Virus record (IMG/VR): IMGVR_UViG_3300029823_000381
Span: 1-55,846 of that record
Strand: one strand, 5' to 3'
DNA from: a virus
Lineage: Duplodnaviria; Caudoviricetes
DNA length: 55,846 bases
Shown: positions 3,388 through 24,327 of the stretch, piece by piece
Layout: every line of letters starts with the position of its first letter
How positions within the stretch are numbered: position 1 is the stretch's first letter
The notes under the pieces: generated by a model
Told to the model about the DNA's origin: nothing
What the model saw: only the letters and a program-made list of their open reading frames with translations
Databases searched by the model: none
Position numbers and translations under genes: made by a program

Positions 3388-3537
3388 ATGCAAGACATAA
3401 AATCTAACATAATAAAAAATATTGAATTTATAGAAAGTGTTATGAGAAAATACGGTTTAGAAACTCTTAATTTAGATTTATTTATTTCAGAGATCATAAA
3501 GAAAGTAGACAAACTTAACCATCTTTCTTCTTTATGA
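3388..3537 (+). CDS. Small hypothetical protein (49 aa, MQDIKSNIIKNIEFIESVMRKYG...)
   Basis: AAGGGG RBS then ATG; below the ORF-track size cutoff; convergent with the repressor. Confidence 0.5.
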   Translation: MQDIKSNIIKNIEFIESVMRKYGLETLNLDLFISEIIKKVDKLNHLSSL

Positions 3538-3931
3538 TATTCTCTAGTTTTGACTGTAAAGCTATTGATTCCATTACTAATTTCTGTACTTGAGAAGACA
3601 TACCACCATTCTTATCAATTAGTCCTTTTTCTATTAGTAACTTTACAGCCAATGCAGAAATTGGTATTTCTGTTTTAGGGGCATTTCTATATACCTCCTC
3701 TATTGCCTCTTGGGGCGTAGTTTCTTTATTACTAGGTTCATATAATCTATTTACAGGTACGCTCAAGGCAGTAGCTATTTTTTCCATCATTTTTGCAGAC
3801 GGATTCTTTCTTAATCCTCGTTCTAATTTAGATATATAGTCATTTGTGGACCCTATCATTTCTGAAAGTTGTATTTGAGTTAAACCTTTTTCTATACGCA
3901 AATTACGAATGTTTTTACTAATAGAACTCAT
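3515..3931 (-). CDS. CI-like immunity repressor (XRE HTH, no peptidase domain)
   Basis: IRNLRIEKGLTQIQLSEMIG..YISKLERG..NPS; divergent from the early operon. Confidence 0.85.
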   Translation of the reverse strand: MSSISKNIRNLRIEKGLTQIQLSEMIGSTNDYISKLERGLRKNPSAKMMEKIATALSVPVNRLYEPSNKETTPQEAIEEVYRNAPKTEIPISALAVKLLIEKGLIDKNGGMSSQVQKLVMESIALQSKLENIIKKKDG

Positions 3932-4044
3932 CCAACCAACTCCTTTTTATGTCTATTAGTCATAAAATATGATATCACAATTTAAATGAATTTAAAAGGC
4001 AATTGAAGATAAAAAGAGAAAATAGAAGCATTATCTATTTATTT

Positions 4045-4097
4045 TAATACATTAGTCTTAAAAATAGTTTTACTATTTAAGACTAATGTATTATTAT
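4045..4097 (+). promoter_or_regulatory. Early lytic promoter (TTTACT-17-TATTAT) overlapped by an 18-bp perfect inverted repeat (probable repressor operators)
   Basis: TAATACATTAGTCTTAAA (4045-4062) / TTTAAGACTAATGTATTA (4076-4093); related site ATTAGTCATAAA near 3955-3966. Confidence 0.7.
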
Positions 4098-4246
4098 ATA
4101 AATGTACTAAGGAGATATACAAAATGATAAAAAAGAGGAATGATACAAGCTGATATTTATTAAGAACTTAACTTACAAAAGGAGGTATACACAAATGATT
4201 ATTTTAAAAGGAGTGAAAATAGAAACATGATAGGAGGGTTGAGATT

Positions 4247-4447
4247 GTGAGAATTTTTTTCAAATGCCCATATTGTGGTAGGAAATTAGCTATCATAGAT
4301 AGTACTAAAAAAATTCAAGGTGTATTTCTTAAGTGTGGGAAATGCAAACGAGAAGTTGAAATAAAAAATATCGAGAGCCAGAATCCAGAGGCCAGAGTTC
4401 AAGAAACCAGAGCCCAGAGATCAGAGCCATTAGCCGATACAGGTTGA
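4247..4447 (+). CDS. Com-like zinc-ribbon protein (first gene of the early operon)
   Basis: CPYCGRKL...IQGVFLKCGKCKREVEI pattern; GGAGGG RBS, GTG start. Confidence 0.75.
   Translation: MRIFFKCPYCGRKLAIIDSTKKIQGVFLKCGKCKREVEIKNIESQNPEARVQETRAQRSEPLADTG
4373..4429 (+). repeat. About 7-nt tandem repeats, consensus CAGAGNC
   Basis: CAGAG at 4386, 4393, 4408, 4415 and 4422; variants at 4379 and 4400. Confidence 0.85.
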
Positions 4448-4476
4448 TTGTATCGAGCCAATGGCTCTTTTATTTT
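4423..4476 (+). terminator. Intrinsic terminator/attenuator inside the early operon
   Basis: AGAGCCATT..CGATACA / TGTATCG..AATGGCTCT stem followed by a T-rich tract. Confidence 0.8.
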
Positions 4477-4498
4477 GCTGGAAAGGAGATACGGTTAT

Positions 4499-4702
4499 AT
4501 GAGTTTTAAAGAACTATGTAGAAAGAATGGATTTACCCTTACTGAAGTAGCACAAAAAGCTAATACTACAGTAGATTATTTATCAAAGCTAAATAGAGGA
4601 AAAAGAAAAAACCCTACTTGGCAGTTTGTAAATAAAGTTGCGTCTATTCTAGGGGTATCAGAAAGTGAAGTTGGAAAAGCGATAACAAAGGAGGATAAGT
4701 AA
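4499..4702 (+). CDS. Cro-like HTH regulator
   Basis: GFTLTEVAQKANTTVDYLSKLNRGKRKNPT; AAGGAG RBS before ATG 4499. Confidence 0.8.
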   Translation: MSFKELCRKNGFTLTEVAQKANTTVDYLSKLNRGKRKNPTWQFVNKVASILGVSESEVGKAITKEDK

Positions 4703-4704
4703 TA

Positions 4705-4877
4705 ATGAATAATTTAATAACAATCAAGATTTACAAGTAAAAGAGTTCAATGGACAAAGAGTAGTAAATTTCAAAGATATTGATATATTATATGAAAGAC
4801 CAGCAGGAACGGCTAAGAGGAATTTCAATGAAAATAAATATAATTCTGACAGAACAGGCAAGCTAATTTATCTGTAA
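4705..4877 (+). pseudogene. Frameshifted, truncated ORF6N-type antirepressor remnant
   Basis: ATG frame stops after 11 codons; the adjacent frame reads NNQDLQVKEFNGQRVVNFKDIDILYERPAGTAKRNFNENK. Confidence 0.7.
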
Positions 4878-5143: not shown

Positions 5144-5950
5144 GTGAGCAACTTAATGATTATTTCAAATCCATCAAAAATTAAATCCACAGAGCTTGTT
5201 GATATTATTAATGAGTTCAGAAAAGCAGAAGGTAATAACGCAGAATTACAACATAATGATTTTATGAAGAAAATCAGAAAAGAAGTTGAAATACTGAAAA
5301 ATCTAGGCTTAGAAGGACAGGGAAATTTTTCGCAGTCGTCATATGTTAATTCACAGAACAAAGAACAGCCGTGTTTTGAGCTTAACCGTGATGGAATGCT
5401 TCAAATGTTAAATAGTGAATCAGCTTATGTAAGATATAAAACTATTGAGTATATTAATAAGCTAGAAGAAAAGCTTAAATGTCCTAAAGATAGCTACATG
5501 ATAGAAGATCCAATAGAAAGGGCTAAAGTCTGGATAAAAGAGCAGGAAGAAAAGAAACAATTGGAACTTGCTAACAGACAAAAAGATCAGTTGATAGGAG
5601 AACTTAAACCAAAGGCAGATTACACAGATTCAATTCTTAAAAACCCAGGATTAGTTACTATAACTCAAATAGCCGCAGATTATGGATTGAGTGGTGTAGC
5701 AATGAATAAATTGTTACATGATTTAAAAGTACAGTACAAGCAAAGTGGACAATGGCTTTTATATTCACAGCATAAGGGCAAAGGATATACTCATTCACAA
5801 ACCACTGATATTGTCCATAAGGATGGTAGACCAGATGTAAAAATGAACACCAAATGGACACAGAAAGGCAGATTGTTTCTTTATGACTTGTTAAAAGAAA
5901 ATGGGATATTACCAGTTATAGAACAGGATGTTAAGGAGAAAACAGTTTAA
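5144..5950 (+). CDS. Phage antirepressor (Rha-like N-terminus + KilAC/ANT C-terminus)
   Basis: SSYVNSQNKEQPCFEL; LKPKADYTDSIL..TITQIAADYG..TKWTQKGRLFLY. Confidence 0.9.
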   Translation: MSNLMIISNPSKIKSTELVDIINEFRKAEGNNAELQHNDFMKKIRKEVEILKNLGLEGQGNFSQSSYVNSQNKEQPCFELNRDGMLQMLNSESAYVRYKTIEYINKLEEKLKCPKDSYMIEDPIERAKVWIKEQEEKKQLELANRQKDQLIGELKPKADYTDSILKNPGLVTITQIAADYGLSGVAMNKLLHDLKVQYKQSGQWLLYSQHKGKGYTHSQTTDIVHKDGRPDVKMNTKWTQKGRLFLYDLLKENGILPVIEQDVKEKTV

Positions 5951-16915: not shown

Positions 16916-17018
16916 GAAGAAAGCAAAAATAATAACGTATATATCAAGTAGAATGTGGGTCAGTTTTAAACTTTATGTTCTACTTGATATAAAACACATA
17001 TAATAAAGGGGTGGTTAA

Positions 17019-17438
17019 GTGAATAGGGCATTAAGAGATAAGATCAGAGAAGAAGCTGACAATTGCTGTATGTTATGTGGATATAATTGCGGTAAAACTG
17101 GAAGCCCACATCATATAGTTAAAATAAGTGAAGAGCCTCTATTAATCAACTGTAAGAAAAACATTATGTGGGTGTGTTTAGGCTGTCACCACAAAACAGA
17201 AAATGATGGTAAATTCCAAGCAAGGTTACAGAAACAGCTTCAAGAAAGATATTTTAGAATATTCAATAAGCATAAGAACTATACGGTTAAAGAAATAGCT
17301 GGGATAGTCCAAGCTCCTGTAAAAGATATCGAAAAAGCTATACAAAAGGGATTTTTGAAATGCAAGTTTATAAATGGAATTCACAAGGCTTTAGGAATAG
17401 ACACTATAAGGTTTTTGATGGGTGGAAAATTAAAATAA
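17019..17438 (+). CDS. HNH-like zinc-binding nuclease
   Basis: CMLCG..HHI...N...CLGCH. Confidence 0.65.
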   Translation: MNRALRDKIREEADNCCMLCGYNCGKTGSPHHIVKISEEPLLINCKKNIMWVCLGCHHKTENDGKFQARLQKQLQERYFRIFNKHKNYTVKEIAGIVQAPVKDIEKAIQKGFLKCKFINGIHKALGIDTIRFLMGGKLK

Positions 17439-24123: not shown

Positions 24124-24261
24124 ATGCAAACATTAAAATGCAAGATATGTGGTAGAACACTTATGGAAGTAGAAGGACAGGCACATATAAGAAAGAAGTG
24201 TCCTAAGTGTAAGACCATGAATGAATTCTACATAAAAGAAAAGCCAAAAGTAAATAAATAG
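24124..24261 (+). CDS. Com-like zinc-ribbon protein (45 aa)
   Basis: LKCKICGRTL...IRKKCPKCKTMN, Mu Com-like pattern; GAGGT RBS. Confidence 0.8.
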   Translation: MQTLKCKICGRTLMEVEGQAHIRKKCPKCKTMNEFYIKEKPKVNK

Positions 24262-24264
24262 ATT

Positions 24265-24327
24265 AGCGTACCTATTAAGCGTACCATTATGAGGATAAAA
24301 CCTTGTAGTGGTACGCTTTTTTATTTT
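24265..24327 (+). terminator. AGCGTACC direct repeats plus intrinsic terminator upstream of the packaging genes
   Basis: Repeats at 24265 and 24278; 18-bp stem 24277-24294 / 24301-24318 with three G-U pairs; then TTTTATTTT. Confidence 0.85.

Follow-up and report, generated by a model that had tools for sequence, protein, structure and literature searches.

Does the small zinc-ribbon gene at the head of the early region of a Clostridium prophage act on the transcription terminator in which its own reading frame ends? The question is raised by a stretch of viral DNA (Caudoviricetes; IMG/VR record IMGVR_UViG_3300029823_000381) that was analysed over its whole length of 55,846 nucleotides (nt) and is referred to below as the window. 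It is a 55.8-kb provirus with a G+C content of 31.7%, of which a Clostridium metagenome-assembled genome (MAG) holds a 98% identical copy (locus L003). On its + strand, a gene for a protein of 66 amino acids (aa; positions 4247-4447) carries short tandem repeats in its 3' end, and the last repeat belongs to a terminator hairpin directly before a Cro-type gene. An earlier interpretation made from the letters of this DNA (the sequence-only reading) held that the protein resembles Com of phage Mu, binds the repeats in its own transcript and blocks the terminator, as a cooperative positive-feedback switch comparable in role to lambda N. Our analysis indicates that the product of this gene is very probably a Com-family protein with a cognate RNA element that overlaps the terminator.

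The Com-like protein, its repeats and the terminator

The gene starts with GTG behind a Shine-Dalgarno sequence (SD; GGAGGG, 4233-4238), and its product consists of a zinc ribbon (residues 1-41) and a tail (residues 42-66). The ribbon carries the cysteine motifs CPYC...CGKC within residues 7-33, and the four cysteines are invariant in three family alignments (A1, A4 and A5). The proposed likeness to Com was borne out by profile comparison: hhalign aligned Mu Com (AF083977 Mu_52) with family profile A4 over 37 columns (probability 93.5%, E = 2.4e-7), and phrog_6417, annotated as 'translational regulator', matched the window protein at 1.4e-5. Five of nine family members matched this group and all nine matched phrog_5602; phrog_13819 (gpCom) scored only 0.055 with the window protein. 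The closest ESM Atlas clusters carry the name 'Mu-like prophage protein Com'. Searching the PDB sequences with the Com-like protein returned spurious C2H2 'YKCPECGK' matches only, and no Com structure.

The repeat array lies within the last 75 nt of the open reading frame (ORF). It comprises eight units of 7-8 nt each on the + strand (4373-4429) with the core CC-A-GAG, which are candidate Com-type RNA binding sites. The units read, in order, GAGAGCC (4373-4379), AGAATCC (4380-4386), AGAGGCC (4387-4393), AGAGTTC (4394-4400), AAGAAACC (4401-4408, the sole 8-nt unit), AGAGCCC (4409-4415), AGAGATC (4416-4422) and AGAGCC(A) (4423-4429), the last of which is the 5' base of the terminator hairpin. 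Exact GAGCC occurs at 4375, 4410 and 4424 in the array, and a fourth copy at 4455 lies in the 3' arm of the hairpin. Tandem Repeats Finder reported 7.4 copies of period 7 with 66% matches and a score of 34 (default threshold 50), and 2.3 copies of period 22 with 79% matches and a score of 67.

Units 2 to 7 can form an imperfect hairpin, P1 (4383-4421, + strand), with 13 pairs, bulged or mismatched A residues, the loop CAAGA (4400-4404) and a folding energy of -3.5 kcal/mol. It adjoins the 46-nt terminator stem-loop P2 (4423-4468, + strand; -26.0 kcal/mol), and the two are not mutually exclusive. P2 holds the UGA stop codon of the Com-like ORF (4445-4447) in its loop, and the AGAGCC of unit 8 pairs with GGCUCU at its base. 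Directly 3' of P2 lies the U-tract of the intrinsic terminator, UUUAUUUU (4469-4476, + strand), and 22 nt separate the end of the terminator from the AUG of the Cro-type gene. The 141-nt region folds with a z-score of -4.0, and none of 200 shuffles folds equally well. All seven loci of close homologs preserve P2, the 3' arm of which has undergone changes. The + strand between 3900 and 23800 contains few other terminator-like sites. An Rfam search yielded nothing meaningful at E <= 10 in 3900-4800 and no family at the gathering score in the whole window. Because P2 combines -26 kcal/mol with an 8-nt U-tract, its default outcome is expected to be termination, and an activator would therefore be logically needed.

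These results agree with the sequence-only reading on the tandem units of about 7 nt in the 3' end of the gene, and on a last unit that serves as 5' arm of a long hairpin followed by a U-tract directly before cro. Its consensus CAGAGNC held in part. The literal form is exact in three units only and is not enriched window-wide (15 occurrences versus 9.6 +/- 3.3 expected; 9 of 100 shuffles reach 15), while the local clustering stands out: at five copies per 45 nt, CAGAG and CCAGA are the densest complex 5-mers of the window (five is reached by 1 of 30 shuffles), and over both strands of its 55.8 kb three or more GAG-N0-2-CC per 40 nt are found at the array locus only.

Selection on the repeat block and recurrence of the architecture

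The close relatives fall into five protein clusters only, and their DNA comes from three sublineages: the window and L003; L004, L010 and L011; and L005 and L012. Locus L004 belongs to a cultured strain, Clostridium luticellarii DSM 29923, which holds the homologous element. Between the window and L004, third codon positions differ at 1 of 26 sites in the tail as compared with 20 of 41 in the zinc ribbon; for L005 the corresponding values are 6 of 26 and 18 of 41. Each of the three pairwise comparisons has its maximum of sliding identity at 4369-4448, with lower values on either side. The substitutions in the tail are compensatory or wobble changes that fit the adjacent helices P1 and P2. Across the close family, P1 retains 13 pairs with 100% of cells paired, two of the pairs being altered on both sides. 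A covariance model built from the close family matches L026 (47% aa identity) at 56 bits, and 12 of the 13 P1 pairs of L026 are standard despite about seven double changes, in an alignment that was fitted to the model and is biased towards structure. Judged by these patterns of substitution, the repeat block is selected as RNA, and because the G-U pairs fit the + strand only, the element works as RNA. The earlier proposal that the repeats are nucleic-acid sites thus gains support from the synonymous-site conservation and from the compensatory and G-U changes, which assign them to + strand RNA.

Relatives were gathered from genomes, viral contigs and metagenomes, and removal of six identical duplicates left 27 distinct loci. 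Two or more GAGCC lie within 173 nt around the stop codon at 21 of these, against a background expectation of 0-0.38. The six loci lacking such a pair are L026, which has degenerate units, and L022, L023, L024, L037 and L038, which are weak zinc-ribbon matches in other proteins. A scan of viral contigs for three exact units returned the known relative and two further candidates (L007 and L009), which were rejected as chance matches in unrelated coding or low-complexity DNA of higher G+C content. An independent sample of Clostridiaceae genomes (193 scored, 8 more unscored) gave seven matches, six of them at new loci, and at four of the new loci (L046-L049) GAGCC arrays run into a terminator. 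The remaining two are L045, with neither array nor terminator, and L050, which is related to the second Com-type gene of the window and has no repeats. The phage GenBank collection contained one weak relative only, in Ruminococcus phage RG-TP1.

An array on the 5' base of a terminator is found in seven lineages, namely the window family, L026, L021/L036, L031, L046, L047 and L048/L049. In all seven, the 5' base of the intrinsic terminator consists of the last unit or, at the least, of its CC, and the array always lies 5' of the hairpin. The lineages outside the window family share 39-53% identity with the window protein, so that the combination of repeats with an overlapping terminator, which the sequence-only reading had proposed to look for 3' of homologs, recurs in diverged lineages; the refuting outcome named there, its absence from homologs, did not occur. 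The unit stands between a divergent helix-turn-helix (HTH) repressor gene and a Cro-type gene in the window family, L026, L046 and L048/L049. In three of the lineages (the window family, L026, L021/L036) the terminator loop contains the stop codon. At L031, four UGAGCC and the terminator are all 3' of the stop codon; L046 has eight AGAGCC units with a period of 6; and L046-L049 have a second array, as well as the terminator, 3' of the stop codon. At L048 and L049 (reverse strand, about 1495-1638), C-K-K-H replaces the second CxxC knuckle of the protein, a CCCH variant that retains the GAGCC array and terminator.

A second group of relatives, from gut phages and located ahead of tape-measure-like genes, is of a translational type: a pair of GAGCC supplies the 5' arms of a long hairpin, in which the SD and AUG of the following gene are hidden. 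Given this position, binding of the protein to the GAGCC pair would have to open the hairpin. One such case is an unannotated Com-like ORF between gp33 and the tape-measure gene of RG-TP1 (L006, 2501-2626; PQ571303.1, about 16998-17123). Here, as at L013-L020 and L027-L035, two GAGCC pair with the initiation region of the following gene, whose product begins M-A/G-D-G-S. From its sequence, the RG-TP1-like arrangement looks like a Mu-type translational switch on a gut-phage tail gene.

The wider family contains 362 clusters at 50% identity (E <= 1e-3). For a survey of tails, 131 of 150 listed members were kept (<=140 aa, two CxxC), 51 of which have a tail of 8 or more residues. Among 20 of these 51 selected for EP- or ES-rich tails, an E-P or E-S pair stands at a near-fixed distance past the second knuckle, a position that agrees with an encoded GAGCC or GAGAGCC and may be taken as an indirect hint of the RNA motif.

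A proposed Mu-type activator at a terminator and its rivals

The RNA target of Mu Com provides the closest comparison. In Nowacka et al. 2019 (PMC6483171), SELEX (systematic evolution of ligands by exponential enrichment) with the Com zinc finger yielded a bipartite 5'-GAG(N)2CC-3' motif in tandem, recognised in the form 5'-CC(N)2-3GAG-3' with GA accessible. Several such motifs adjoin and partly overlap the translation-inhibition structure of mom, which Com binding is thought to melt (PMC6483171). Our inspection of the Mu sequence located GAG...CC motifs within the 3' third of com itself. The units of the window share both elements of the Com motif, their order and their tandem setting, with spacers 1-2 nt shorter. 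The two systems are alike in their small CCCC zinc finger with a C-terminal tail, homologous by profile comparison, and in tandem GAG...CC in the 3' part of the regulator ORF, adjoining or overlapping the inhibitory hairpin of the next gene; the translational-type relatives reproduce the Mu arrangement. They differ in the hairpin, which is an intrinsic terminator in the window and a ribosome-site hairpin in Mu. The SD (about 4483-4489) and AUG of the Cro-type gene are unpaired in the minimum-free-energy fold, so that the freeing of a buried ribosome site that characterises Mu Com has no counterpart there. The window also has eight sites as compared with two to three in Mu, and would control the lytic early operon at the immunity switch of a Clostridium phage rather than a late DNA-modification gene of a phage with a proteobacterial host.

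Based on this analogy and on the anatomy of the locus, we consider it fairly probable that the Com-like protein binds the nascent transcript of its own gene and averts termination, the layout being like that of HutP. No early rightward transcript would extend into cro, the antirepressor and the replication genes without crossing P2. In the early phase, most transcripts would end at 4469-4476 and give Com-like mRNA alone. As the protein accumulates, it would bind the tandem CC-A-GAG/GAGCC units in the 3' end of its own mRNA while this RNA is nascent, probably in several copies, and would occupy or melt the AGAGCC at the base of P2 ahead of synthesis of the 3' arm, allowing RNA polymerase to read through. 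The Mu Com/mom logic would in this way be moved from a ribosome-site hairpin to a terminator, within an operon laid out like that of HutP. That the protein would prevent P2 formation, rather than favour it, is suggested because the sites are always 5' of the hairpin and at the stem base, because they form the inhibitory arm in the translational-type relatives and because Mu Com is an activator. Cooperativity is suggested by the number of sites alone. The positive feedback that the sequence-only reading had proposed does not fit the locus: the regulator gene lies upstream of the terminator and its own synthesis is independent of read-through, and the circuit would therefore gate lytic early transcription by feed-forward, as a delay or a threshold.

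Its likeness to lambda N, also drawn earlier, stands with regard to the position in the operon and not to the mode of action. In both cases a first early product would let transcription pass a terminator before the delayed-early genes, with a similar timing role in lytic development. Many terminators are subject to lambda N, which modifies RNA polymerase via boxA/boxB and Nus factors. The window, by contrast, has one site cluster physically overlapping one terminator, which suggests passive, HutP-like rather than processive antitermination; no boxB-like hairpin was seen, though no search for one was made. HutP itself binds NAG triplets 2-4 nt apart in terminator RNA and destabilises the hairpin (PMC12591593; PMC2425495). 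The B. subtilis system resembles the window in gene order (regulator first, terminator next), in triplet repeats in the terminator RNA (GAG or GAA every 7-8 nt in the window) and, as far as can be inferred for the window, in passive action on a single terminator. It differs in its unrelated fold, a hexamer activated by histidine and Mg2+ as opposed to a zinc ribbon with no known ligand, and in lacking the conserved CC of the window sites. TRAP likewise reads many (G/U)AG repeats, in a leader RNA, and so decides the fate of an intrinsic terminator (PMC3064811). Multi-repeat RNA reading at an intrinsic terminator would be common to TRAP and the window, yet TRAP promotes termination by blocking an antiterminator, and it is an 11-mer ring of unrelated fold and a host metabolic regulator.

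Several observations weigh against antitermination by the Com-like protein. Binding, stoichiometry and direction of effect are inferred from the Mu Com analogy and the anatomy of the locus. The spacing between GAG and CC is 0-1 nt within a unit and 1 nt between units, as opposed to 2 and 2-3 nt in the SELEX motif. Com prefers its motif in a hairpin loop and is weak on duplex (PMC6483171), and invasion of a -26 kcal/mol stem is conceivable only co-transcriptionally. P1 is worth only -3.5 kcal/mol, and its outer pairs have a probability of 0.01-0.02 in the full-length ensemble. In the close family alone, the observed covariation score is reached by 19 of 500 shuffles, a modest result, and the support from L026 is subject to the structural bias of its alignment. 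One clade member, L045, has neither repeats nor terminator. Finally, no Pfam family exceeded the cut-off for the Com-like protein (the Com model PF10122, Zn_ribbon_Com, was absent from the 25 best of 38 matches), and NCBIfam gave nothing above threshold; the protein cluster bears a precomputed PF26783 label.

Could the element work without RNA binding by the protein? In translation-coupled attenuation, a ribosome at the UGA would cover P1 and the 5' arm of P2, so that a translated message is read through and an untranslated one is terminated, and the zinc-finger protein would act elsewhere or be incidental. Such coupling would account for a stop codon inside the terminator loop, as seen in the three lineages named above, and for the location of the entire window array within the ORF. 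We nevertheless regard it as unlikely, as the stop codon of L031 precedes all four GAGCC units and the terminator, L046-L049 have a second array and their terminator after the stop, and the recurring specific GAGCC motif with its match to the Com motif would be left unexplained. In B. subtilis, RNA polymerase runs ahead of the ribosomes, and coupling in Firmicutes would be weaker for that reason. The protein might instead bind the array with another outcome, either stabilising P1 and P2 and thereby increasing termination, as a negative control of cro and the lytic genes, or protecting the 3' end of its own mRNA. Com does favour motifs in hairpins with the CC paired (PMC6483171), and P1 is marginal, could be stabilised by a protein and is compatible with the adjacent P2. 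However, a stem of -26 kcal/mol with a good U-tract needs no help, Mu Com is an activator that melts adjacent structure, and the translational-type relatives build the 5' arm of their inhibitory hairpin from these very sites. A repressing factor would, moreover, leave no evident route to expression of cro and the replication genes, and we hold this alternative to be quite improbable.

It is also conceivable that P2 is an ordinary terminator, with a tail conserved by protein constraint or by recent mosaic exchange and with heptads that are a by-product of a low-complexity E/P/R/Q/A/S tail. Mosaicism does occur nearby (85-90% identity between the window and L005 at 5369-5468), and the below-threshold period-7 score and the lack of window-wide enrichment of the literal consensus would be expected on this account. 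Synonymous-site conservation is nonetheless confined to the tail, the bounds of the identity peak are equal in the three pairwise comparisons, and the substitutions are compensatory or wobble changes; arrays also lie outside ORFs (L031, L046-L049), and the motif follows relatives at 39-53% identity as well. Together, these data make an ordinary terminator very improbable. Least credible of all, in our judgement, is another reader of the repeats, which could be DNA heptad iterons for a DNA-binding protein or RNA NAG triplets for a host HutP-type hexamer. DNA heptad iterons are bound, for example, by the omega protein of inc18 plasmids. The 7-nt period and the 22-nt super-period of the array would suit such readers, and the HutP rule, NAG motifs 2-4 nt apart (PMC12591593), accommodates GAG triplets with 4-nt spacers. 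Yet the G-U and compensatory changes depend on the strand and agree with RNA helices rather than DNA sites, and a HutP-type reader would explain neither the conserved CC of each unit nor the strict linkage to Com-like genes; the Com-like protein itself had no match to the HutP family in Pfam and NCBIfam scans.

Genomic setting, a second Com-type gene and implications

Upstream of the element, a gene for a CI-type HTH repressor of 138 aa (3515-3931, - strand; Pfam HTH_3, E = 4.1e-15) diverges from the early operon. The control region of 315 nt between this gene and the Com-like ORF contains operator-like repeats and a promoter-like site. The latter, TTTACT-17-TATTAT (4069-4097, + strand), overlaps an operator-like inverted repeat with 23-nt arms (4040-4098); from their positions, they may serve as promoter and operator. 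Three copies of ATTAGTCWTAAA, two direct and one inverted (3955-3966, 4051-4062 and 4076-4087), are candidate operators of the divergent repressor. A possible internal promoter, TTGAAA-17-CAGAAT (4356-4384), was dropped, since relatives have a 3-nt insertion in the spacer and its position is upstream of the terminator in any case. Between the promoter-like site and the Com-like gene there are two micro-ORFs with strong SDs (4124-4153, 9 aa, and 4195-4230, 11 aa). The Com-like gene, described earlier as the first early gene, is therefore the first sizeable gene of the rightward operon, with these two small frames before it. At the position of the second micro-ORF, visual inspection of the alignment revealed a K-rich micro-ORF of 11-15 aa in L004 and L005.

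The first gene past the terminator encodes a Cro-type HTH protein of 67 aa (4499-4702, + strand; HTH_31, 7.8e-9). It is followed on the + strand by genes for an ANT/Rha antirepressor, YopX, a YqaJ exonuclease, RecT and a replisome organiser, and the + strand genes from the Com-like ORF through the replisome organiser are the early lytic operon. At the prophage end, the minus strand of positions 1-2798 carries two large tandem ORFs, 1-1230 (open-ended) and 1254-2798, the second of which encodes a large serine recombinase with Resolvase, Recombinase and Zn_ribbon_recom domains.

The phage has a second Com-type gene, which encodes a more Mu-like protein of 45 aa (gene 24124-24261, unit to 24328, + strand) and whose unit precedes the small terminase gene by 830 nt. 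Two direct AGCGTACC repeats (24265-24272 and 24278-24285, + strand) lie 3' of the gene, and an 18-bp terminator hairpin (to 24317), followed by a T-run, has the second of them as its 5' base. The logic of the arrangement is alike at the two copies, and the RNA word differs, AGCGUACC at copy 2 versus GAGCC at copy 1. The repeat motif of copy 2 has no other occurrence on the + strand of the window. Homologs of copy 2 form two protein clusters; the arrangement was seen only in this prophage lineage (L043), and the relative L050 is without repeats or terminator. A third Com-type ORF, which is Mu-like and of 41 aa, was noted in the prophage-bearing MAG (L044; genome G002, contig 34, 18027-18134, - strand). 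Its stop codon overlaps the next ATG (ATGA), and no GAGCC or terminator was seen there.

Com-type translational control and protein-mediated passive antitermination are both already known. Our literature search retrieved no report of a Com-type protein controlling a terminator; most subscription journals lay outside its coverage, and an earlier description may exist. CAT, ANTAR and HutP are the only classes treated in a 2025 review of RNA-binding antiterminators, whose text, when searched, mentioned neither zinc nor phage. In Pseudomonas, Com-like genes precede cargo genes (llpA, tailocin cargo) as portable upstream regulators of variable tail length (PMC6240691). They differ from the window in that the accessible part of that study leaves their mode of action unexplored and mentions no link to a terminator (PMC6240691).

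A broader generalisation, which we consider evenly balanced between right and wrong, is that the Com family supplies portable hairpin-openers to Firmicutes phages, at ribosome sites and terminators alike, and that the terminator version, whose multi-site GAGCC array is part of the coding tail of the regulator, gates cro in a set of Clostridium prophages. If the proposed mechanism is correct, the role of the Com family would extend from translation to transcription termination, and the zinc finger would be a fourth protein class of RNA-binding antiterminators beside CAT, ANTAR and HutP. The tail would then provide a compact case of a C-terminal peptide dictated by the RNA binding sites of the protein itself. 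A GAGCC code that is reused with different hairpins would aid the annotation of hundreds of small phage zinc-ribbon genes that are as yet unannotated, and the element may find use as a compact orthogonal RNA switch. Little is known of how temperate phages of Clostridia control their early lytic transcription. In these phages, a two-part switch of a 66-aa protein and about 110 nt of RNA would operate at the lysis-lysogeny decision, where a terminator gate between the immunity region and cro would set the timing and threshold of lytic commitment.

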